From assembly GCA_028280565.1 (NCBI GenBank), contig JANQLQ010000260.1, positions 20,817 to 84,816 of the forward strand: a stretch of DNA of 64,000 nt, given 5' to 3'. Below the pieces are notes generated by a model that was given only the letters and a program-made list of their open reading frames with translations, was not told the DNA's origin and made no database searches. This document shows, in pieces, positions 11,844 to 63,890 of this stretch. This stretch comes from Fulvivirga sp. (lineage in GTDB: Bacteria > Bacteroidota > Bacteroidia > Cytophagales > Cyclobacteriaceae). The first letter of the stretch is position 1, and every line of letters starts with the position of its first letter. The translations under genes were made by a program, and so were the position numbers.

Positions 11844-12092
11844 ACCTGACAGCCGGGATATATTACCGGCTGGTAACTCACTTTTTATCTCGTCCTGTAC
11901 ACGTTACGTTGGCGCATATTCTCTCGACCTTTTAAACAATGAAATGCCCAGGAGGTATGAAGGGCCTCGGTTAAAAGCAGGTTCGGAGAACCTGTATATG
12001 GATAAGCACGGGTTTGAAAAACCCGCGCTAGGCCAGCAAATATTTTATTGATAACTTCTTTAACCAGCTCTAACCGGCCTTTAAATGGCTTT

Positions 12093-12405
12093 AACTGGCG
12101 CAAGTTTGCAACTTGTGATTTCTTTATGATCACTAGGGTTTGTAACCCGGCTAACAGGTAACAAAACCATAATCCTTAGACATATCCTATATCAATCCAA
12201 GCTGAAACTGCCCGTAGGCCAACAAAATAGCCGTCACTCGCTAAAAAACTATAGCCGTCGGTTGAAAGACTTCCCAGCGCAACCCCTGGCCCCTGATTTC
12301 CCCTTCACGGGGATTAAGGAGTGAGCGATGGCCATAGAATGGCTTAAACGGACGGCTATACCCAAAAAATAAGCGGCTATTTCTTTTTTGCATATGGGTA
12401 ATGAG
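12093..12405 (+). repeat. Family A structured repeat, copy A1 (with an internal inserted module at about 12240-12375)
   Basis: Head AACTGGCGCAAGTTTGCAACTTGTG...CACTAGGGTTTGTAACCCGGCTAAC and tail CTATTTCTTTTTTGCATATGGGTAATGA are shared with the other copies. Confidence 0.85.
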
Positions 12406-13366
12406 TTTGCTTGGTTTTGTAAAAAGAATCAATGTTCATACTCTCAACAGCTTTGTGAATAAAGGCTAAAAAAACGCTTAAACCAACCGCCATAGTCACA
12501 GGCTTGCACCGCGCCAGCGCAAGAAAAATTTAGACTAAAAAAATTTTACAGGAACACGGAACAATTCAGATTGCCCTAAGGTTAGGTTCTTTGGATGTTG
12601 GGGTTATATCAATATAAAATTGGCTAAGAACGTAGTTTTTGTAATTAATCTTATGCTTTCTTCGTGGGTCCTGGTCCATTCTTTACACCCGGCTCACCTA
12701 GATGGTCATCACATCTTCGCAAGTCTCGAAATAGAAGAAAAATCCGAAAATCTCGGAGAGGATAATGAAGATATCGATCAGTGCAAGCAAGACAATACTC
12801 TTTTCTTAAGTCAACCAAACCCCGGCCACAACACCTATACGTACACATCTCCTTACATTTCCTCATATAAGGTGCCCCCTAAACGTGTATCAATGCCATT
12901 TAAATAAGGCCAGCGCCCACCTAAAAACCCCTAAAGAGGAACCGGTGGATTGCACCCTTAGGGTAGAGGTGCGATGGGTGCGCTTATATTCATGGCATGG
13001 AAACACGTTTACCCTGCTAGCATTTTTATTCCTAAGTATTTTGAATTATCCAGGTAGGCCTCTCTACTGTGAGCTTAATCCAGTAAAGAACGGCTTGATT
13101 TACCCAAGTATTCATGCTCATTAAGGGTGTCTAGGAATAAAAGTTTGCTAAGCAGAAATCACCACTGAATTCATTTTTGACTCAACTAAACCCTTTATGT
13201 TATTTAAACCATCACAAGAAATTGGTGAGTAACAGGAAAGAAATTTTTCAATCCTTCTAAACAATGGAACATGACACTAGTATGGGGAGCTTTTCGGCAA
13301 TTGGCTGGAAAATGATAATGAATTCAGAACATTCTCAACCACAACATAATAAACAAAACGATAACA

Positions 13367-13981
13367 TTGATGAACGTTAAAATTTTTAAAGCTGGCATAG
13401 TATGCCTTGTAAGTTGTCTCCTATCCGTGTCACTCAAGGCACAGAACGAAAATGAGGATCGCACTTTATTCAAAAGTGGTAATTTTGAAAACCTCGGGGT
13501 GATGTTGGCACCAAGTTATGGTTACACAAGAATGGACGGGACGGGCGTTTCCCTAGCCAATATCCGTGCGGGTGTAATTGTACAAGAAAAGTTTACCTTC
13601 GGGGCCTTTTACGGATTTTCATTGAATGATATTGATCCGGAAAGTGAGACTGTAAATGGTATTTACATGGATTTTCGTTCATACGGGGGATTCGCCGAAT
13701 ATACCATTCGCCCTTCCGAACTCATTCATTTCAGCTTTCCGCTGTTCATAGGTGCCGGCGAGGTGGAAATGGATAACGATGAGGGAAGTGCAGGCCTGGG
13801 TGAGGAAAATTTTTTCCTGGTTGAACCGGGAGCACTGCTCGAAATTAACCTCCACAAATATGTCAGGTTCAACATTGGAGCAAGCTACCGCTTCGTGGGT
13901 GATATGAGCTACCGAAACATGAGTAGCTCAGATATCTCTGGGCTTACCGGCCAGGTAGGATTGAAATTTGGTGTTTTCTAA
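13367..13981 (+). CDS. Small outer-membrane beta-barrel-like protein, unknown function
   Basis: Signal peptide ending SLKAQ, an alternating aromatic/Gly pattern, and a C-terminal LKFGVF typical of an OM beta-signal. The ATG at 13370 is the likely start. Confidence 0.55.
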   Translation: MMNVKIFKAGIVCLVSCLLSVSLKAQNENEDRTLFKSGNFENLGVMLAPSYGYTRMDGTGVSLANIRAGVIVQEKFTFGAFYGFSLNDIDPESETVNGIYMDFRSYGGFAEYTIRPSELIHFSFPLFIGAGEVEMDNDEGSAGLGEENFFLVEPGALLEINLHKYVRFNIGASYRFVGDMSYRNMSSSDISGLTGQVGLKFGVF

Positions 13982-14020
13982 TAATTTTTCCAGCAGCTTA
14001 GTATAAACCCGCTGTTTCAA

Positions 14021-14056
14021 AGAGCCACGTTGGGACCTAGTACCCAGGGTGGCTCT
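14021..14056 (+). terminator. Candidate intrinsic terminator of the OMP gene
   Basis: AGAGCCAC ... GTGGCTCT stem followed by a T-rich tract (TTTACAACTTTT), 40 nt after the stop. Confidence 0.45.
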
Positions 14057-14080
14057 TTACAACTTTTAACCTTACCATCA

Positions 14081-14203
14081 TTGGCGCAAGTTTGTAACTT
14101 GTACATTATGATCACTAGGGTTTATAACCCGACCCACAGTTAGCAAAACTATCATCTTCAATTAATCCTATATCAATCTAACTCTACACAGGCCGGAGGC
14201 CTA
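14081..14203 (+). repeat. Family A repeat, copy A2
   Basis: TTGGCGCAAGTTTGTAACTTGT...CACTAGGGTTTATAACCCG...CCTATATCAATC...GGCCGGAGGCC. Confidence 0.8.
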
Positions 14204-14218
14204 AGACTTGACTTAACC

Positions 14219-14255
14219 CAACTGGCGCAAGTTTACAACTTGTGCCCTCTTTATT
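14219..14255 (+). repeat. Family A repeat, head-only fragment A3
   Basis: AACTGGCGCAAGTTTACAACTTGTGCCCTCTTTAT, then similarity is lost just before the GNAT stop codon. Confidence 0.7.
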
Positions 14256-14290
14256 TAAGTTGCGCTATGCTCAACTTAAACCAATTCAGT

Positions 14291-14698
14291 TTAATGTTCG
14301 TTACCCTTATAAATCCACATGGGCATTGTTTCTCCGGCTCTTTCAAAGCCGACTTTCTTGTAAAAATCGATTGCTTTTCCGTCAGCTGTTAACATTTGCA
14401 TATGGAAGTCTTTATATTTCTCTTGAAACTTATCTACAATCATATTGCCAATTCCTTTTCCCTGGTATTCAGGGTGAACTAATAAGTGCGGATAATAAAC
14501 CACCAAGTAACCGTCAGAGATTGCATTTCCAAGTCCGACTAATTTTTCTTTGTCCCAAGCAGTAATTAATGAATGAGAATTCAATAATGCATTTCTTAAT
14601 TCCCCAGGTTTTTCAGCAGAACTCCATTCGTTTGCTTTGTACAACTCAACAATTTGGTCCGTACTTATTTTCCTTGTTTCTGAAATTGTAATTTCCAT
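14291..14698 (-). CDS. GNAT family N-acetyltransferase
   Basis: 135 aa with the acetyl-CoA binding motif QGKGIGNMIV and a C-terminal FYKKVGF. Confidence 0.85.
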   Translation of the reverse strand: MEITISETRKISTDQIVELYKANEWSSAEKPGELRNALLNSHSLITAWDKEKLVGLGNAISDGYLVVYYPHLLVHPEYQGKGIGNMIVDKFQEKYKDFHMQMLTADGKAIDFYKKVGFERAGETMPMWIYKGNEH

Positions 14699-14795
14699 TT
14701 TCGATTTTTTTCAAGCTTGCACTGCCCCGTCCTAAAATAAGTTTACGGTAGTTAGTATTACTTGATCGTACTTATCTAATGTATCAAAATCACCC

Positions 14796-15090
14796 AACTG
14801 GTGCAAGTTTGCAACTTGTGCCCTGTTTATGGTCACTAGGGTTGGTAACCCGGCTAACCCGTGACTAAGACCCGGCAAAAATCACAAAATGAAGGCGGGT
14901 TTAATCTCGTGTTTTATATTTAATGCCTCAATTTTGAGCTTTTTACCCACTTGGCCGAGTCGCAGACTCTCTTTTCAACCCATGTAACAGGCAGCAAAAA
15001 AGCCATCCCTCGACAAACCCTATGTTAACCCAACCCGAAACCGGCCGGAGGCCAAAATGACTGTTTCTTTTTTACACGTAGGTGATCTGC
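14796..15090 (+). repeat. Family A repeat, copy A4 (carries a ~130-bp nested insertion at 14859-14988)
   Basis: Head AACTGGTGCAAGTTTGCAACTTGTG...GGGTTGGTAACCCGGCTAAC. The body resumes at ACAGGCAGCAAAA...CCGGCCGGAGGCC...TTTCTTTTTTACACGTAGGTGA. Confidence 0.8.
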
Positions 15091-15107
15091 TGCAGAGACC
15101 TGTCGGA

Positions 15108-15482
15108 TTACTCCTTCTCATAGTAAATCACATTTGCTTCCTCTACCCTTCCAAAATCGCTATCTGAACTGATGACCGGCACGTTTAAATATTGTGAGGT
15201 GGCTAAGATAATGCTGTCGGGCAATTTAATTCGTACTGATCGCCTGATCTTAATCACCTCTTCTTTAATCTTAGTATTGATATCGATGATAATACACTCA
15301 TCCAAAAAAGTGCGAATTTCATCCCGGTCCTGGACCGTGATATCTTTATAACCGAGTAATTCTAACTGGCTGATGAAGGATATGTAGATTTTCCTATTGT
15401 ACAAAAGGCTGCTCAACACTTCATCTCCTGAAAGAAGATAGAGTACTATGTTAGTATCCAATAAAACACTATTCCCATTCAT
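15108..15482 (-). CDS. vapC: PIN-domain toxin (VapC-type)
   Basis: LLDTNIVLYLL near the N-terminus and SSDSDF near the C-terminus carry the PIN acidic residues. It overlaps the upstream small gene. Confidence 0.8.
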   Translation of the reverse strand: MNGNSVLLDTNIVLYLLSGDEVLSSLLYNRKIYISFISQLELLGYKDITVQDRDEIRTFLDECIIIDINTKIKEEVIKIRRSVRIKLPDSIILATSQYLNVPVISSDSDFGRVEEANVIYYEKE

Positions 15483-15666
15483 CGCGCATTCGCTTTTGAA
15501 TAACTAAGGGGTCTTCTTTCAATTTTATTACCCCACAATACTTGTGAGTATCTACTCCTTTAGTTTCAAGAGCTTCTTGTAAAAGTTGAGATAATAGCGC
15601 TTTATCTGATCCCTTTTTGATAACTGTTACCATTGATGGTTTCCTTGTTTTTGTAAAGATAGTCAA
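15469..15666 (-). CDS. vapB: Antitoxin partner of VapC (VapB-type)
   Basis: Small ORF overlapping the vapC start by 14 nt. The KYCGVIKLKEDPLVIQKRMRDEW tail is recognised from partners of PIN toxins in Bacteroidota. The probable true start is the ATG at 15633. Confidence 0.6.
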   Translation of the reverse strand: MTIFTKTRKPSMVTVIKKGSDKALLSQLLQEALETKGVDTHKYCGVIKLKEDPLVIQKRMRDEWE

Positions 15667-15736
15667 TGTTTATACTTTGGACAGCTTTGAAAGCTAGGCA
15701 ACTGGTTTTTACTAATACATCATTTCCCCTAACCTT

Positions 15737-15935
15737 AGCTGGCGCTAGTTTGCAACTTGTGCCCTGTTTATGGTCACTAGGGTTTGTAACCCGGCTAACA
15801 GCCAGCAAAACCTCCATCCTCCGACAAATCCTATATCAATCCAACCCTACACCGGCCGGAAGCCTACCCAACAGCCGTCACTCACCAAAAGCCACCGACT
15901 GTTCCCTTTTTTGCACGCAGGTGACGACAGCAGGA
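15737..15935 (+). repeat. Family A repeat, copy A5 (apparently uninterrupted reference copy)
   Basis: GCTGGCGCTAGTTTGCAACTTGTG...GGGTTTGTAACCCGGCTAACAGCCAGCAAAACC...CCTATATCAATCC...CCGGCCGGAAGCC...CCCTTTTTTGCACGCAGGTGAC. Confidence 0.85.
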
Positions 15936-16238
15936 CTCATTTTGAAAACGAAAATTTTATCGCTACTCGTTTCAATTTTTGCGAGGGCAATAAAAAATTT
16001 TAAAGGCAACCTATCTGCCTGCGAGCTTCGGAAAATTTCAATCTCTACAAGGTGCAATTAACGATCTATGTGACTGACAATCAAAGCCCAGGCGGGGTTG
16101 AGGTTCCTGGAGCATCAGGCACTACACCCCAGGAGGTTCGCCAGGGAATGGAATCATGGGGGATGGAAGTACCCCACACCAGCTCCAGGGGACGGGCAAA
16201 ATTTATCAGTCAAAAATTAGAAATTATCAAAATCTCGC

Positions 16239-16246
16239 TAATTTAG
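16239..16246 (+). promoter_or_regulatory. Possible Bacteroidota -7 promoter element
   Basis: TAATTTAG is one mismatch from TAnnTTTG and lies a few nt upstream of the riboswitch 5' end. I saw no clear -33 TTG. Confidence 0.25.
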
Positions 16247-16249
16247 CCC

Positions 16250-16440
16250 CCGATTTTGGTTCCCGGGCATACTTCGGGATTAAAAGGGAATTCAGTGAAA
16301 ATCTGAAACTGTACCCGCAGCTGTAAAGTGTCATCAAAAGTTTTTGCATCGGTCCACTGTCTTGATTGATGGGAAGGAGCAAAAACCGACACAAGTCAGA
16401 AGACCTGCCTCAATCAACAGCATCCAGGCTTTCGGGTGAA
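16250..16440 (+). promoter_or_regulatory. Cobalamin (AdoCbl) riboswitch
   Basis: The GGTTCC...GGGATTAAAAGGGAA...GTGAAAATC...CCCGCAGCTGTAA core, GGTCCACTG...GGGAAGG, and the B12 box AAGTCAGAAGACCTGCC at 16393-16409 are all present. It lies directly upstream of the corrin operon. Confidence 0.9.
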
Positions 16441-16575: not shown

Positions 16576-17400
16576 ATGGGAAAAAACCTTGCTCAATCAA
16601 AAGTAACCTTTTATTTCTGCGATGGCGGGTCCTGCCGTAAAGCTGGTAGCGAAGCGGCCATTAGAAAAGCCCGGGCGCACCTGCGCAACAAAGGCCTTTG
16701 GGATGAGTCGCATACCATCAAGACCAAGTGCAACGGCCGCTGTGAGGATGCGCCCACCTGGATCGTACAATCGGGGGATTACTGGTACAAAGAGGTAGAT
16801 CCGGGGAAAGCCATCCGGATCATCGATGCACACTGCGATCACCAGCAACCTTTGGCTCCGGAATTGATCTTCCGCGAAGGGCAAGCGAAAGTCAACTCGG
16901 AGAAGGAGCCCCCCCCGGTAGCAACCCCGGTTTTCCAACGGGCGCAAGACGAAGAGTTGGGCGAAGTATACAAAGCCAGGGGTTTTCATTCCGACCAGTA
17001 TTTGTACGCCTTCTTCCTTTACCTGCAAGAAAACCCGGGAGAGACAGAACTCTCCCTACCCAATGGCACATCTTTCCCGTTTAACGACCTACGGTTTGTG
17101 GATTATACCGACATGTACCGGCTCAAACTTCACTTCGGGAAAGATGAAGAAGCCATTATCGAATTAGTCACTGCGCTGGTTCCCAAGACCGAGCCCGATG
17201 AACTGATCAAGCGGAAGGTCACCGTGTGCGAGCATTTTATACAAATAGCCACGGATCGTAAAGTGATCCGGTTGAAAGATAAGATGGGTAGATTGGTTAC
17301 TTCCCTGCAGATTGCGGCTACGGATGAAAAGACCTGGGAATATTGCCTGGAGATCCAGTTGAATAATGCCGTGGCGCCAAAAGTAACACTGGGTGCCTGA
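16576..17400 (+). CDS. Thioredoxin-like [2Fe-2S] ferredoxin domain protein with an uncharacterised ~170-aa C-terminal domain
   Basis: CDGGSC ... CNGRC (C-x4-C ... C-x3-C) pattern in the first ~60 aa. It is the first gene after the B12 riboswitch. Confidence 0.65.
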   Translation: MGKNLAQSKVTFYFCDGGSCRKAGSEAAIRKARAHLRNKGLWDESHTIKTKCNGRCEDAPTWIVQSGDYWYKEVDPGKAIRIIDAHCDHQQPLAPELIFREGQAKVNSEKEPPPVATPVFQRAQDEELGEVYKARGFHSDQYLYAFFLYLQENPGETELSLPNGTSFPFNDLRFVDYTDMYRLKLHFGKDEEAIIELVTALVPKTEPDELIKRKVTVCEHFIQIATDRKVIRLKDKMGRLVTSLQIAATDEKTWEYCLEIQLNNAVAPKVTLGA

Positions 17401-27618: not shown

Positions 27619-27696
27619 AACCACCTGGCAAACATTTGCCCGTCTATCCATCCACCGCAATTCAAAGGCAGGACAAACCCCCAAACCCCAACCCTC

Positions 27697-27950
27697 AACT
27701 GGCGCAAGTTTGCAACTTGTGCCTTCTTTATGATAACCAGGGTTTGTAACCCGGCTAAAAGATGGCAAAAACCTCCACACCTCGACAAATCCAATATCAA
27801 TCCAAACCAACACCGGCCGGAGGCCCACACAATGGCCGTTACTCACCTAAAGCAATAGCCGTCAGTTAAGGACTTCCCAGCGAAACCCCTAACCACTGAA
27901 GGGGCAATCCATCGCACCTTTAGTCCACTCTTGAAAGATTCCTGTCGACA
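27697..27950 (+). repeat. Family A repeat, copy A6 (with an appended module at about 27850-27950)
   Basis: AACTGGCGCAAGTTTGCAACTTGTG...CCAGGGTTTGTAACCCGGCTAAAAG...CCAATATCAATCC...CCGGCCGGAGGCC. Confidence 0.85.
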
Positions 27951-28009
27951 GTTCTTGCCCATCAGCCAACTCAAGACTCAATACTCATTACTCAAGACTT
28001 CACTTACTC

Positions 28010-28158
28010 AACTGGCGCAAGTTTATAACTTGTGCCTTCTTTATGATAACCAGGGTTTATAACCCGGCTAAAAGATGGCAAAAACCTCCACACCTCGACA
28101 AATCCAATATCGATCCAAACCAATACCAGCCGGAGGCCTACACAATAGCCGTCAGTAA
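28010..28158 (+). repeat. Family A repeat, copy A7 (in tandem with A6)
   Basis: Near-identical to A6 over ~150 nt. The hairpin loops differ (TAT versus TGC and TGT). Confidence 0.85.
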
Positions 28159-28162
28159 TACT

Positions 28163-28198
28163 AAAAAAAGCCATGATCATCACAGGTATGATCATGGC
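28163..28198 (-). terminator. Intrinsic terminator of the PhoX-like gene
   Basis: On the minus strand: GCCATGATCAT-ACCTGTG-ATGATCATGGC (11-bp perfect stem) followed by TTTTTTT. Confidence 0.8.
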
Positions 28199-28251
28199 TA
28201 AATGGGTGTTCTTTTCTTTGTTAGTTATTGGTCAAATTGGCTTTATGGGGT

Positions 28252-30245: not shown

Positions 30246-30528
30246 ATTTACCCGTGCCATGTCAAGCCTCAAATGGCGATTAATTTTTTTCGGTCTCGTT
30301 CCCAAAGTCGGCAGTTGGCAATGGACAACCCTCTATATTTTTGCCTACTGCTCTTTGCCTATTGCCGACTGATCAATACTTCAAACAGCTCATGCTGTAG
30401 CCAATACGTCATTTAAGATTTAACTTAACACTAGTGCCCTATGTTACTCAACGAATCTGCGTTGCCAACACGGACTCGTTTAAGTTAAGGGGGAGTCGCG
30501 CTCATCTTCGATGCCTAAACTGGAAGGG

Positions 30529-31350
30529 TCAATTGATCACTATCTCGTCAAAATAATGTTCTAATATTTCTTTGGCGGTTTCAAGCTCTTCGGGGGTATT
30601 TTCAGGGGTATTCTTTAACGCATATTCCTTTCCCAGTTTTTCCCACTTGTATATTCCTAGTTTGTGGTAAGGTTGTATTTCCAGTTTTTGTACCTGGCCA
30701 TAGGTTTGAAAATGTTGTCCTAGTTGGTGAAGGTGTTTGGGATCATCAGTAAGCCCGGGCACCAGTACGTACCTCAACCAAAAGGGTTTCCCCTGCTCTT
30801 GCAGGTACTTTGCAAATGCTAACGTATTTTCATTAGAGCGCCCAGTGATCCGCTTATGCAGGACGGGGTCCATATGTTTCACATCTAACAAGACCAGGTC
30901 CGTGTACTCCAGCATTTTTTCTACATATTGATTCATAAAGTACCCAGTGGTGTCCAGGCAAGTATGTATCCCCTTGGATTTCAATTTTTGAAACAATGCG
31001 ATCAACGGTTTGGCCTGGCGACAAGGCTCACCACCGGAAACTGTTACGCCTCCCCCATTGGCAAAAAACGGGCTCATGTTTTCCGCTGTATCCAAAATAC
31101 GTTCAATGCTGTAGACTTCTCCCTCACCGGGACTGATCGTATCTGGGTTGGCACAATAGAGGCATCGGAACGGGCAGCCTGTTAGAAATACTACAAACCG
31201 TATACCGGGTCCATCATAAGTCCCAAAGGACTCCGTGCTATGGACATTTAAGGTTTCCATGCCTGTTACAGTCTGTAAAGTATCATTTGGCATAATTCTT
31301 CCGGCTGTGATAATGTGACAAACCGGGCACAAAAGATGTACCCGGTTCAA
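30529..31350 (-). CDS. pflA: Pyruvate formate-lyase activating enzyme (radical SAM)
   Basis: CPFRCLYC radical-SAM cluster motif and DGPGIRFVVF. The probable true start is the Met at 31260 (METLNVHSTESFG...). Confidence 0.9.
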   Translation of the reverse strand: MNRVHLLCPVCHIITAGRIMPNDTLQTVTGMETLNVHSTESFGTYDGPGIRFVVFLTGCPFRCLYCANPDTISPGEGEVYSIERILDTAENMSPFFANGGGVTVSGGEPCRQAKPLIALFQKLKSKGIHTCLDTTGYFMNQYVEKMLEYTDLVLLDVKHMDPVLHKRITGRSNENTLAFAKYLQEQGKPFWLRYVLVPGLTDDPKHLHQLGQHFQTYGQVQKLEIQPYHKLGIYKWEKLGKEYALKNTPENTPEELETAKEILEHYFDEIVIN

Positions 31351-38507: not shown

Positions 38508-38945
38508 AGGCTGGCGTAGCCGGTGGGCGGGTTACGAAGCTGCCCCCTTCTTATGTGTGATCGAATGGACCTTGTTCTCGTTCCACGAGTGGGAGATCGC
38601 TTCACGCATCACTAAGGCCAGCCCGCTGGGTTCGCGATGACGATAAAACAAAAATATGTAATAGGTAGGCTGGCGTAGCCGGTGGGCGGGTTACGAAGCT
38701 GCCCCCTTCTTGTGTGTGATCGAATGGACCTTGTTCTCGTTCCACGAATGGGAGATCGCTTCACGCATCACTAAGGCCAGCCCGCCGGGTTCGCGATGAC
38801 GATAAAACAAAAATATATAATAGGTAGGCTGGCATGAGCAGTGGACAGGGTACGAAGCTGTCCCCATGCCGTGTGTCATCGAATGTAGTCTATTCGTATT
38901 TCGCAACCGGGGGATTTCTTCTTCCTCCTGTCGTTGTCATCGCAA
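38508..38945. repeat. Tandem repeat, 159-bp unit, about 2.7 copies (third copy diverged)
   Basis: Unit starts (AGGCTGGCGTAGCC / AGGCTGGCATGAGC) fall at 38508, 38667 and 38826. Copies 1 and 2 differ at only a few positions. Confidence 0.9.
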
Positions 38946-44843: not shown

Positions 44844-44898
44844 CCAGCAATTGACACCAAAAGGGCGATGAGGTTCAATGGATTTGGATTCTAAAAAG

Positions 44899-44972
44899 TC
44901 GGGGTGACTGGATTCGAACCAGCGGCCTCTTCGTCCCGAACGAAGCGCGCTACCGAGCTGCGCTACACCCCG
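44899..44972 (-). tRNA. tRNA-Pro (anticodon CGG)
   Basis: Manual cloverleaf: acceptor CGGGGTG/CACCCCG, D-stem GCGC/GCGC, anticodon stem CTTCG/CGAAG with loop TTCGGGA, T-loop TTCGAAT. Confidence 0.9.
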
Positions 44973-45074
44973 TTTTATTGTTTGCTTATTCTTTCCCTGT
45001 CCATAACGATGCTTATGTCAAGAACAATACAATATTACGTTATGCTAAAGGGTACAAGCTCTCTTGGTAAACAG

Positions 45075-45147
<73 letters not shown>

Positions 45148-52042: not shown

Positions 52043-52081
52043 CGCGGTGCGCTAATTGGATTAAGCTGACTTTGACAAAAC

Positions 52082-52310
52082 GGGTTCGCGTTTGTAACGC
52101 GGACCCGTTGAGTACCAAGGGCACTCACGCCAGCATTTGTAATACGGGTATTCAAAATCAAGACGGAAAACTACCCCTCCATAAAACCGGTATAACGGCC
52201 CTACTGATCAAACGTATAGCAACAAGCATAATTCCCGCAACGATGTTTAAAGGAAACAAAAGAGGATTTTAATACACGCCCTCATCCCCCCTTCTATTAC
52301 CACGATAAGT
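52082..52310 (+). repeat. Family C repeat, copy C1 (uninterrupted)
   Basis: GGGTTCGCGTTTGTAACGCGGACCCGTTGAGTAC...GCATTTGTAATAC...AAACGTATAGCAACAAGCATAAT is shared with 63440-63890. Confidence 0.8.
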
Positions 52311-52386
52311 ATACAAACGCCTGTAATTTGTATACTCTTTACTCGCAGGCACCGCGGAAATTTGTCTTGTAACAAATACAAAATCC

Positions 52387-53712
52387 ATGAATCCTCTCAC
52401 ACCAGGTTTAGGTAAGGTTTTACTTATGGGGTGCGCAGTTACTACAAGCTATGCTCAAAAGCTGGCGGAGCCCTTAGATAAACCTTCAACATTTTCAGGG
52501 AATATCCTAGCTGCTTCGGACGCAGATATGCTGGGAGGCGCTTACGCCGACGGGGTATTGAATAAAATCGAGGGTATCGAAGACGAGCTTTCCTTTATCC
52601 AAGTTGCCAGCGGCAGTCCATCCGTATTAAGCAGTCATTTTGTAAGCAACTCCGTAATCTCCTGGCCTTCCATTATTGCCTGGCATACAGGGCGTAACTA
52701 TGCCTACGTAGCTGAAACCCGCGGAATGTACAAGGGTACGGAAAATAAGGTAAAGAACGTATGGAAAGAAATGCCTACTGGGAATAAGATCACCGTTATC
52801 GATTACCAAGACCCGTCCCATCCTAAACCAGTCCAAGAAAAAATTATTGGGGAAAACCTCCAGGGGGTAAGCCTAAATGCCAATGGCTCACTGCTGGTGG
52901 CGGGCTCCACGGAAAAAGGAAAAGAACTGGTGCTGGCACGGTTGGAAGATGGGAAGATCGGGGAAGCTTTCTATTTCACTAACGATGAGATAGATCCGAA
53001 AGAATCCAATAATTCAGGGATCCGGACAATTGAGTTCCATCCTACTAAAAATGTCATTGCGGTCAATTTGAACAATGTGAGCTTAGTCTTCTACGAGGTA
53101 CAAGATCAAAACGGCAAGCTAGACCTGGTACCACTCGGAGCTTCGCAAAAAGTAGCTAAAAATTGGAGCGTTGGCAACTGGCATCCGTCGGGTGATTATT
53201 TTATCCTGACCGATGTAGCTTGGGGAAAAGGAGCCCTAGGCGCTGTTTTCAATGGCAAGGGAAGGTTAGTTTCTGTCCGTTTTGATCGTACCGGTGCACA
53301 TAAGGTCGTTTCGAAGATAAAAGTGGGGCTGAGTCCTGAAGGTTTTGGACTAAGCCCAAACGGGCAGTATGCCGTAGTGGCAAATATGAGAAGGACCTAC
53401 ATGCCGCCGAAAGGCTATTGGTTCGTATCCAAAAAGGATTATTCTTCCCTTACCTTGGTTAGGATCAATCCAACGACGGGTGAGCTTACCCGGTTAGGTA
53501 ACGACTACGGCTTTAAGGGTATGCTCCCGGAAGATGCCATATTTGATGCAGAAAGTAACTCCATTGCCGTAGCTGTATTCCATGAAAGAGAAGACCTGCA
53601 ACCCAAGCAAGGATGGATCGATTTCTGGGAATTAGAAGGAAATACGCTGGTAAAAACGAAACATCGCACTTATGTTACCCGGGGTGTACACAACTTGCTA
53701 TTGGTAGACTGA
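52387..53712 (+). CDS. Secreted beta-propeller-like protein (lactonase/YncE-like), function unknown
   Basis: Signal peptide and repeated blade-like segments (LSPNGQYAVVANM); weak recognition. Confidence 0.4.
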   Translation: MNPLTPGLGKVLLMGCAVTTSYAQKLAEPLDKPSTFSGNILAASDADMLGGAYADGVLNKIEGIEDELSFIQVASGSPSVLSSHFVSNSVISWPSIIAWHTGRNYAYVAETRGMYKGTENKVKNVWKEMPTGNKITVIDYQDPSHPKPVQEKIIGENLQGVSLNANGSLLVAGSTEKGKELVLARLEDGKIGEAFYFTNDEIDPKESNNSGIRTIEFHPTKNVIAVNLNNVSLVFYEVQDQNGKLDLVPLGASQKVAKNWSVGNWHPSGDYFILTDVAWGKGALGAVFNGKGRLVSVRFDRTGAHKVVSKIKVGLSPEGFGLSPNGQYAVVANMRRTYMPPKGYWFVSKKDYSSLTLVRINPTTGELTRLGNDYGFKGMLPEDAIFDAESNSIAVAVFHEREDLQPKQGWIDFWELEGNTLVKTKHRTYVTRGVHNLLLVD

Positions 53713-56791: not shown

Positions 56792-56828
56792 TCCATACAT
56801 CTCGCAAACCGGGCGGCGAAGCTAGATA

Positions 56829-57006
56829 CCTGGATTCGATTAAAAAATGAACGTCATTCCGCGCCGGTGGCTGCAGGAGGGCTCATTGGGAGAGCCGGAA
56901 TCTGCCGTGTCGTAGAACGGAAGCTAATCCCCAGCTTAAAGCCTGTGAAAGTATGCTAAACCTCATGTTAAGCTTAGGCTACAATGATTTTAAATCGAAC
57001 TAAGAT
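56829..57006 (+). mobile_element. Family B MITE-like element, copy B1 (178 bp)
   Basis: About 80% identical by eye to 63469-63646 and the same length. It has a subterminal inverted repeat (TTCGATTAAAAAAT ... ATTTTAAATCGAA). The flanks are TAGATA and TAGAAA. Confidence 0.7.
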
Positions 57007-57018
57007 TAGAAAGGACTC

Positions 57019-63439: not shown

Positions 63440-63468
63440 GGTCCGTATTTGCAACGCGGACCCATTGA
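63440..63468 (+). repeat. Family C repeat, copy C2, left part
   Basis: GGTCCGTATTTGCAACGCGGACCCATTGA matches the head of C1. Confidence 0.7.
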
Positions 63469-63646
63469 CCTGAACTCGATTAAAAAATGAACGTCATTCC
63501 GCGCCGGTGGCAGTGGGACGGCTAATGGCAAGAGCCGGGATCTGCTGTGTCGTAGAACGGAAGCTAATCCCCAGTTTAACAACTCTGAAATTATGCTGAA
63601 CCTCATTTTAAGCCTAGGCAACAATGATTTTAAGTCGAACGGAGGT
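63469..63646 (+). mobile_element. Family B MITE-like element, copy B2 (178 bp), inserted inside C2
   Basis: It interrupts C2 exactly where C1 is continuous and is flanked by CATTGA on both sides (63463-63468 and 63647-63652). Confidence 0.75.
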
Positions 63647-63890
63647 CATTGAGTACTACAGGGAACTCATGCCGGCATTTGTAATGCAGGTACCCAACGA
63701 ATCCTCTAATCAAGGCGAAAACCTCCATACGTAAAGCCAGCATGAAGGCGTTCCTTATAAAACGTATAGCATCAAACATAATCTCCGGGGAGTGTTTTAC
63801 GAGAGGAAAAGGGATTATAGTACTCGCCAGGTCAATAGGTCTAAAACTCAAACTCCCCCCCACACAAGCCTCACTATCACGATCAATTTT
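63647..63890 (+). repeat. Family C repeat, copy C2, right part
   Basis: CATTGAGTAC...GGCATTTGTAATGCAGG...AAACGTATAGCATCAAACATAAT continues the C1 alignment. Confidence 0.7.

Follow-up and report, generated by a model that had tools for sequence, protein, structure and literature searches.

The closest described counterparts of the elements studied here are the repetitive extragenic palindromes (REPs) beside genes for REP-associated tyrosine transposases (RAYTs) of subclass 2.6 (Quentin 2018, PMC6006769), which corresponds to RAYT group 5 of Bertels et al. 2017 (PMC5581495). In PMC6006769, subclass 2.6 proteins are reported to derive mostly from Bacteroidetes, to have a mean length of 179 aa and to carry the motifs NH[LIV]H, WQ and YIH[QN]NP; non-GTAG 'atypical secondary structures', further copies of which are present at other genomic sites, lie on either side of their genes. 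Entries beside subclass 2.6 genes in Table S1 of that paper include GCTAGCGCTCGTTTGTAACGAGTGCCGT (Zobellia), CAATCGGATTTGCAATCCGATTG and GGATTTGTAATCC (Bacteroides xylanisolvens) and GGTTCAAG...CTTGGACC (Belliella), and PMC5581495 gives about 31 occurrences per replicon for the 16-mers that flank group 5 genes. Here, a 64,000-nt stretch of Fulvivirga sp. (contig JANQLQ010000260.1, positions 20,817 to 84,816; the whole stretch is referred to as the window) was analysed for hairpins with a TTTGYAA apex, which occur in two repeat families, designated A and C. These hairpins are very probably REP sequences of the kind that accompanies Bacteroidota RAYTs of subclass 2.6 (group 5).

In Escherichia coli (group 2, subclass 2.2), TnpA_REP processes folded single-stranded DNA (ssDNA) and requires a stem mismatch in addition to GTAG (PMC8266576). 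For the group 3 (subclass 2.5) systems of Stenotrophomonas maltophilia and Marinomonas MWYL1, loop bases were shown to be essential for binding and cleavage, with the role of G13 of the GCT loop demonstrated by mutation and by systematic evolution of ligands by exponential enrichment (SELEX; PMC8266576).

All hairpins quoted for families A and C in a preliminary description of the window were found where it had placed them. Family A comprises seven copies, all on the + strand, starting at positions 12092, 14071, 14216, 14795, 15736, 27696 and 28009. A typical unit reads cTGGCGCAAG-TTTGCAA-CTTGTGCC, followed 34 nt later by GGG-TTTGTAA-CCC; the first hairpin, GGCGCAAG-TTTGCAA-CTTGTGCC, consists of eight pairs including one G.T (-8.8 kcal/mol, z = -3.6), and the second folds at -4.7 kcal/mol (z = -2.4). 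Family C is represented by three copies, of which copy 3 was missed by the preliminary description and begins 47 nt past the end of a gene at 30529-31350 (-). The hairpins and the segments associated with them are as follows:

12097..12148, + strand: family A copy 1, first hairpin 12097-12119, second hairpin 12136-12148; element from about 12092 to 12340
14084..14130, + strand: family A copy 2, first hairpin 14084-14104 (TTTGTAA), second hairpin 14118-14130 (TTTATAA)
14224..14246, + strand: family A copy 3, first hairpin only (TTTACAA); truncated
14800..14851, + strand: family A copy 4, first hairpin 14800-14822 (GGTGCAAG..CTTGTGCC, with T.G), second hairpin 14839-14851 (TTGGTAA)
15741..15792, + strand: family A copy 5, first hairpin 15741-15763, second hairpin 15780-15792
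27701..27752, + strand: family A copy 6, first hairpin 27701-27723, second hairpin 27740-27752; element from about 27696 to 27950
28014..28065, + strand: family A copy 7, both apexes mutated to TTTATAA
12005..12029, - strand: solitary REP-like hairpin, AGCGCGGGT-TTTTCAA-ACCCGTGCT, with the same GCGC...GTGC lower stem including G.T
52079..52109, + strand: family C copy 1, first hairpin, a putative long REP hairpin, AACGGGTTCGCG-TTTGTAA-CGCGGACCCGTT, 12 pairs including one T.G at pair 7 from the triloop
52131..52146, + strand: family C copy 1, second hairpin, a decayed short hairpin around TTTGTAA
52147..52310, + strand: family C copy 1, tail; its 63-nt block 52175-52237 is common with copy 2 (73% identity)
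63440..63462, + strand: family C copy 2, first hairpin, GGTCCGTA-TTTGCAA-CGCGGACC, imperfect, with A.C beside the apex (-5.7 kcal/mol, z = -2.2)
63670..63692, + strand: family C copy 2, second hairpin, TGCCGGCA-TTTGTAA-TGCAGGTA, one G.A mismatch; weak (-5.0 kcal/mol, z = -1.4)
63693..63860, + strand: family C copy 2, tail
30449..30482, - strand: family C copy 3, ending after the first hairpin, AAACGAGTCCGTG-TTGGCAA-CGCAGATTCGTT

In total, 17 hairpins of the TTTRYAA type were identified in 10 repeat copies, all outside long open reading frames (ORFs). Sixteen of the 17 are oriented along the + strand although genes lie on both strands, which could reflect a replication-strand bias of an ssDNA mechanism; the GC skew of the window was shown to track gene orientation and gave no clear replication direction. 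Family A copies 6 and 7 (27696-28160) form a tandem duplication with a 313-nt period and 95% identity, and of the few differences between them, three are G>A or C>T and fall within the two apexes of copy 7. The tail of family A copy 4 is split by an insertion of ~125 nt (14873-14997), which bears a short minus-strand hairpin, GAG-TCTGCGA-CTC (14957-14969), representing a second apex class also found near RAYT genes. Family C copy 2 is likewise interrupted, in this case by one of the two copies of a 190-nt repeat (family B; 56828-57017 and 63468-63657, 84% identity) resembling a miniature inverted-repeat transposable element (MITE), which sits 5 nt past the first hairpin. The possibility that this element was inserted specifically at the hairpin foot was considered and rejected, as family B has the terminal inverted repeats (TTCGATTAAAAAATGA / TCATTTTAAATCGAA) and the target duplications of 4-5 bp (AGAT; CATTG) of an ordinary MITE.

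The TTTGYAA heptamer is not in itself enriched in the window: 37 matches were counted, as compared with an expectation of 31.3±6.0. What exceeds expectation is pairing, since nine of the 37 matches are flanked by at least three Watson-Crick pairs, as opposed to a mean of 0.47 (maximum 3) in 300 dinucleotide-preserving shuffles; over all heptamer positions in the window, the paired rate is 1.8%. In every minimum-free-energy fold, TT pairs with AA, and the true loop is therefore a T-G-Y triloop. Folded as ssDNA, the first hairpin of family C copy 1 reaches -15.4 kcal/mol (z = -6.1), and its complement -13.4 kcal/mol; the corresponding values for the family A first hairpin are -8.8 and -6.6 kcal/mol. 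The strand that reads TTTGYAA thus folds better, because G.T or T.G becomes A.C on the other strand. The second hairpin of family C copy 1, previously described as degraded, indeed does not fold (0 kcal/mol). The apex was found to be less uniform than the preliminary description had proposed: it does recur on many different stems, but TTTACAA, TTTATAA, TTGGTAA and TTGGCAA also occur among the window copies, and the outer TT and AA are part of the stem. A resemblance to tRNA anticodon arms, with UUUGCAA or UUUGUAA as 7-nt loops, was rejected as TT and AA pair in every fold and, in other REPs, are replaced by the covarying combinations TC/GA, CG/CG and AT/AT. Copies within one family of the window are not independent, and other genomes consequently offer the stronger test.

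Such a test was provided by two samples. The hairpin-anchored sample consists of at least 117 stretches obtained by scanning with the 21-nt core of the family A first hairpin, TGGYGCWAGTTTRYAACTTGT, using one genome per species. When all ORFs of these loci were clustered against each other with no prior assumption, the top recurrent family, present in 13 of the 117 loci among the matches listed, was a Y1 HUH protein of ~182 aa. A match to PF01797 (Y1_Tnp) was obtained for eight of nine members tested, and all five proteins scored against NF047646, the NCBIfam equivalog for REP-associated tyrosine transposases, exceeded its cut-off of 80 (87.9-102.3 bits). The other recurrent families represent common paralogues, i.e. 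cyclic nucleotide-binding regulators, ABC ATPases and TolC. Alignment of the RAYT proteins revealed the motifs NHVH (NHVHL), FWQ and YIHNNP, with NHVHL and YIHNNP (nearly) invariant. Furthermore, the hairpins bracket the RAYT gene, with upstream copies oriented as the gene and downstream copies inverted and located 5-20 nt past the stop codon. These findings support the earlier suggestion of a selected hairpin recognized by a common factor, for which a Y1/RAYT-type transposase had been named first, and they supply a candidate for the hairpin-binding transposase family whose co-occurrence across genomes had been proposed as a check.

The reverse test employed 80 metagenome loci (280 kb) picked by RAYT protein similarity alone, regardless of hairpins, in which 52 RAYT genes were analysed. 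With pairing defined as at least five flanking pairs around the heptamer, TTTGCAA was paired in 15 of 107 occurrences (14%) and TTTGTAA in 13 of 150 (8.7%), against a background of 0.95%; together with their reverse complements, these two heptamers occupy ranks 1 to 4 of all 16,384 heptamers. The stems that carry them are very diverse, including ATCCTGAG, CTTCCGGA, AGGTGTAG, GATCAG, GTACTCG and others. Additional apex classes near RAYT genes (TCTGYGA, CGTCCCG and ATTGCAT) all conform to NN-T(G/C)Y-N'N', so that pairing and covariation of the outer bases of the apex are confirmed. Around the 52 genes, a strong orientation was observed for T(G/C)Y-loop hairpins that have seven or more consecutive pairs and lie no more than 250 nt from a RAYT gene, with a ratio of 32:4 in favour of the gene orientation on the 5' side and of 31:7 in favour of the inverted orientation on the 3' side.

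Among 54 distinct hairpins near RAYT genes, stem pairs 1, 2 and 4 to 7 are each represented by four or five pair types; as these hairpins had been selected for pairing, only the diversity of the pairs, and not pairing itself, counts as evidence. Pair 3, immediately under TT/AA, is G-C in 48 of the 54, and pair 7 is G.T in 23. A tandem of a long and then a short hairpin, the short one being nearer to the gene, bounds at least six of the 52 RAYT genes with a spacing of 28-31 nt (42 nt in one case), and in locus L163 it is present at both sides of the gene. In L025 (Flammeovirgaceae), the RAYT gene is bounded by a long-then-short module whose alignment with family A spans both hairpins and extends into the last nine RAYT codons. 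A comparison of the reverse-complemented tails with RAYT C-termini yielded a peptide-like similarity that is not significant, so that only the DNA alignment with the L025 gene holds.

Families A and C had been described as otherwise unrelated, a view that the comparison of their first hairpins contradicts. These hairpins agree in length and register and have the 5' tag AAC(T/G)GG in common, and two-sided changes between them retain pairing at pairs 4, 5, 7 and 8 from the triloop (AT>CG, AT>GC, G.T>T.G and CG>TA, respectively). The lower stem of family A is of the widespread GGCGC/GTGCC type, and family C has GGTTC/GGACC instead. An inverted doublet of the two lower-stem types, each with the AACTGG tag, is present in Rhodohalobacter; a stem related to that of family C flanks the RAYT gene in L163, and the GGTTC/GGACC type adjoins a subclass 2.6 RAYT gene in Belliella in Table S1 of PMC6006769. 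Families A and C are therefore two variants of a single module of the type that ends a REPtron (a RAYT gene bracketed by inverted REPs), in which a long hairpin precedes a short one by 28-45 nt.

The core was found across at least eight orders, and the at least 117 stretches derive from ~77 species or assemblies among the matches listed. The taxa represented among these matches are Saprospiraceae, Lewinellaceae, Chitinophagales, Sphingobacteriales, Cytophagales and Aquimarina, as well as Bacteroidales (Paludibacter, Prevotellaceae, Tannerella and Petrimonas), Marinilabiliales and Balneolales, corresponding to the phyla Bacteroidota and Balneolota, in addition to two non-Bacteroidota records. 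The hairpin-anchored loci contain at least 143 core copies beyond those of the window, and their flanks are unrelated apart from a closing GCC (85-95%) and a 5' foot, CCC-n-TGCT, that was not imposed by the search pattern. At positions -4 to -2 of this foot, T, G and C are conserved in 61, 69 and 72% of copies, respectively; the foot in the window is AAC(T/G). The same loci also harbour TTTRYAA on other stems, such as TGGCGCGGA/TCCGTGCCA, GGCGCGGC/GCCGTGCC, TGGTGCTCG/CGAGTGCCG and GGTTCAAG/CTTGGACC. Inverted doublets of the hairpin are present in some genomes (L069 and L008), and copies are often arranged in irregular tandem clusters. A literature search for the exact hairpin sequence returned no match.

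Dense clusters of three to five canonical hairpins at irregular spacings of 29-90 nt were observed in L015 (2808-3736), L031 (1928-2107), L111, L082 and L098. These clusters recall those of bacterial interspersed mosaic elements (BIMEs) in E. coli, and in L015 they bracket the RAYT gene. Canonical hairpins were also observed in records not labelled as Bacteroidota, namely L038 and L084 (Testudinibacter, Pasteurellaceae) as well as L099 (a Chthoniobacterales metagenome-assembled genome), which could reflect either contamination or transfer; L038, a contig of 1591 bp containing a direct repeat of 1250 bp, could be a small circle, and in L099 an inverted hairpin pair is located in GC-rich DNA.

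With respect to classification, the associated proteins possess the HUH and tyrosine motifs of the RAYT (TnpA_REP) family and score above its curated cut-off, and the repeats are short, intergenic, multi-copy palindromes, as REPs are. The proteins can be placed in subclass 2.6 on the basis of their motifs together with the REP type, rather than by phylogeny, since the motifs alone would also fit subclass 2.4, whose REPs carry GTAG. A 5' GT[AG]G is absent from the stem foot, and as Quentin et al. report the same for subclass 2.6, this excludes the canonical REP classes and not REPs as such. Compared with the subclass 2.6 REPtrons of PMC6006769, the present loci display the same protein motifs and length (~180 aa) and the same GCT-(A/G)GCGC...GTGCC frame topped by TTTGTAA, TTTGCAA or TTTATAA, the frame being identical to Table S1 entries of Zobellia, Aequorivita and F. 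johnsoniae. In contrast, the window contains the repeats without the gene, embedded in units of ~200 nt, and bracketing of a RAYT gene by inverted REPs was observed in related loci and not inside the window.

The E. coli REP/BIME system resembles the present one in having multi-copy intergenic imperfect palindromes with a stem irregularity, two REP types in inverted doublets (here in Rhodohalobacter) and a single RAYT gene bracketed by inverted REPs. It differs in that the REPs of E. coli have an AA/GC bulge as well as a 5' GTAG, and the sequence of their loop proved irrelevant in SELEX (PMC8266576), whereas the hairpins reported here have no GTAG, carry a G.T pair as their irregularity and are most conserved in the loop. 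In this latter respect, they parallel the short hairpins of the group 3 pairs with their essential loop bases, although group 3 REPs are perfect palindromes with a 5' GTAG, and PMC6006769 assigns group 3 proteins the motifs DH[LF]H and YI[VI]ANP and gammaproteobacterial hosts. REPINs (REP doublets forming hairpins; Bertels and Rainey 2011, PMC3116915) are likewise non-autonomous and built from REPs, with presumed copying by a RAYT, but a REPIN consists of two near-identical inverted REPs, as opposed to the two different direct hairpins and long tail of the window units.

By analogy with the RAYTs of E. coli, Stenotrophomonas and Marinomonas, binding, cleavage and copying of these hairpins by a RAYT can be inferred. 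When the DNA is single-stranded, the TTTGYAA-reading strand would fold into a stem capped by the T-G-Y triloop, and a RAYT encoded elsewhere in the genome would bind the folded DNA, presumably reading the loop, the G-C pair under TT/AA, the G.T mismatch low in the stem and the short 5' tag. The enzyme would then cut beside the hairpin through its HUH/Tyr site and rejoin the strand elsewhere, by which the module would be copied to new intergenic sites. Since most of the stem would need only to pair, compensated changes could accumulate in the stems with the apex remaining constant, and a constant loop and a fixed mismatch on freely covarying stems are what the loop or mismatch recognition of the studied RAYTs would predict.

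A number of observations weigh against the assignment of the window hairpins to RAYT-associated REPs. A RAYT gene or remnant was not found in the window by tblastn or by comparison of a RAYT hidden Markov model with the six-frame translation (best E = 1.6). No RAYT gene in the loci examined adjoins the exact family C stem, whose link is through L163, Belliella and the Rhodohalobacter doublet. The second hairpins are marginal, that of family C copy 1 having no fold, and the two unlike hairpins of a unit are in direct and not inverted orientation, and hence not REPINs. Moreover, the repeated units (~200 nt) are far longer than a REP, and the ~150-nt tails of families A and C match nothing in the searches made; for the family C tail, this includes a blastn comparison with 197 loci. 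Gene calls in the hairpin-anchored loci were crude, being the longest ORFs of at least 90 aa. Finally, sequence- and structure-specific cleavage and strand transfer have been shown only for enzymes of subclasses 2.2 and 2.5 (PMC8266576).

Among the alternatives, a role at the RNA level is unlikely. Here, the hairpin would be a 3' untranslated region element or a small RNA (a terminator, a stabilizer against 3' exonucleases or a site for an RNA-binding protein) and would be selected on the transcript. E. coli REPs secondarily affect mRNA stability; on one strand only, G.U pairs would result from the conserved G.T and T.G; and each of the three copies of family C, together with several of family A, is situated shortly downstream of a gene of the same sense. 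When core copies were classified against the ORF calls, 91 of 116 were intergenic among the matches listed; 40 of these 91 lie between convergent genes and 12 between divergent genes, so that the comparison of gene ends with gene starts revealed enrichment at 3' ends. However, the co-directional gaps contain 22 copies in sense and 17 in antisense orientation, copies bracket RAYT genes in opposite orientations, and irregular tandem clusters without genes occur (L015, L031 and L111). No U-tract follows the stem, and no Rfam family matched: at the gathering threshold, Rfam 15 returned only a cobalamin riboswitch and two tRNAs for the whole window, and nothing relevant was obtained for the family A cluster (11900-16300) at E values of up to 5. 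Moreover, G.T mismatches would be no less expected if the hairpins were ssDNA substrates of HUH enzymes (PMC8266576). The hairpins may have a secondary effect on transcripts.

It is similarly improbable that families A and C are non-autonomous IS200/IS605 derivatives, akin to palindrome-associated transposable elements (PATEs), that are moved by a classical TnpA(IS200) and not by a RAYT. IS200/IS605 elements and PATEs do resemble the present system in their Y1 HUH enzyme, their folded ssDNA hairpins, strand-specific recognition and the use of stem irregularities as marks; both hairpins of a window unit are on one strand, as are the left-end and right-end hairpins of IS200/IS605, the units are longer than REPs, and the associated protein family also matches IS200 models weakly. 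That match amounts to 25-31 bits against NF033573, below the cut-off of 55, for the same five proteins that surpass the RAYT equivalog cut-off. In IS200/IS605, furthermore, the gene moves with its two same-strand hairpins, whereas RAYT genes are bracketed by inverted, not direct, hairpins. Both hairpins of a window unit are at the same end and no matching hairpin closes the other, and tblastn detected no tnpA or tnpB in the window.

The preliminary description had raised a promoter-like role as an alternative, according to which the TTTG of the apex would act as a promoter element of Bacteroidota (-33 TTTG / -7 TAnnTTTG), making the repeats dispersed promoters. This is highly improbable: TTTG does occur twice per unit, and CAAGTTTG differs from TAnnTTTG by a single base, but all four hairpin types lack a TA two bases ahead of TTTG, and the distance between the two TTTG sequences is 34-45 nt instead of about 26. 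The low number of copies between divergent genes, relative to convergent ones, and the near-equal orientations toward the downstream gene in co-directional gaps likewise disagree with a promoter, and covariation of the stems would be superfluous in a double-stranded promoter. A sigma-54 promoter was also considered, as TGGCGC-N4-TTGCA resembles TGGCAC-N5-TTGCW, and was rejected because the top strand has a GG-to-GC distance of N9 rather than N10, and the bottom strand a shorter one. An origin by chance, i.e. a common AT-rich heptamer that happens to lie between short complementary bases in a few repeat families, is in keeping with the heptamer count and with the presence of only four independent hairpin types in the window, two of them weak, yet is already refuted by the shuffle test, the ranking in the independent RAYT-anchored sample and the conservation of the core across the phylum.

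The system to which the hairpins are most plausibly assigned, that of RAYT-associated REPs, is thus of a known kind, and similar hairpins are already tabulated for subclass 2.6. The accessible parts of PMC6006769 and PMC5581495 present such structures as found by hand and as atypical, and contain no description of the T-G-Y triloop, the fixed G-C and G.T pairs, the CCC-n-TGCT tag, the long-plus-short tandem or the single core in ~77 species. The constant triloop and the fixed G-C and G.T pairs, with the TGCT-type foot replacing GTAG and the tandem, may be new in a descriptive sense. The same may apply to the finding that one identical 23-nt core adjoins RAYT genes whose products are only 42-58% identical across orders, RAYT similarity itself tracking taxonomy; this pattern is inflated by the hairpin-based choice of loci, and RAYT-anchored sampling gives many other variants.

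It is conceivable, although doubtful, that the Bacteroidota REP is 'frozen', with one 23-nt core, GGCGCAAG-TTTGYAA-CTTGTGCC, and a CCC-n-TGCT foot retained beside diverged RAYT genes and present in ~77 species of Bacteroidota and Balneolota. Where stems vary, three features are retained: the T-G-Y triloop, G-C as the pair beneath TT/AA and, at a fixed position, G.T. If the REP were indeed frozen, subclass 2.6 recognition would be based on the loop plus the mismatch, unlike the GTAG-based rule of all RAYTs so far studied, or else an additional host function across the phylum would hold the hairpin constant; the long-plus-short tandem would then represent the functional end of this REPtron.

To our knowledge, the experimentally studied RAYT/REP pairs are all from Proteobacteria and depend on a 5' GTAG. 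The present analysis identifies, with the confidence expressed above, two puzzling repeat families of a Bacteroidota genome as REP modules of a RAYT, and would explain a constant apex on covarying stems by ordinary selection for a folded ssDNA substrate. It also suggests candidate recognition determinants for the Bacteroidota class (the triloop, the G-C pair under TT/AA, the fixed G.T, the TGCT-type foot and the gene-directed tandem) and provides a simple search pattern for annotating such repeats in Bacteroidota genomes.

Various other features were noted in the window. A gene for a PIN-domain toxin (15108-15482, -), with a small overlapping upstream ORF (15469-15666), is located between family A copies 4 and 5. 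The cobalamin riboswitch (16240-16426, +; 108.9 bits) lies upstream of an operon starting at 16576, and the two tRNAs are tRNA-Pro(CGG) at 44898-44972 (-) and tRNA-Gly(CCC) at 45074-45147 (-). Two 12-bp inverted repeats could each be a terminator or an operator: agccatgatcat-CACAGGT-atgatcatggct at 28169-28199, between convergent genes, and a second with the 7-nt centre GCCTGTA at ~52301-52332, just upstream of a gene at 52387. A 159-nt unit is present in two tandem copies with 97% identity at 38508-38825, within a 1.4-kb stretch without a long ORF.

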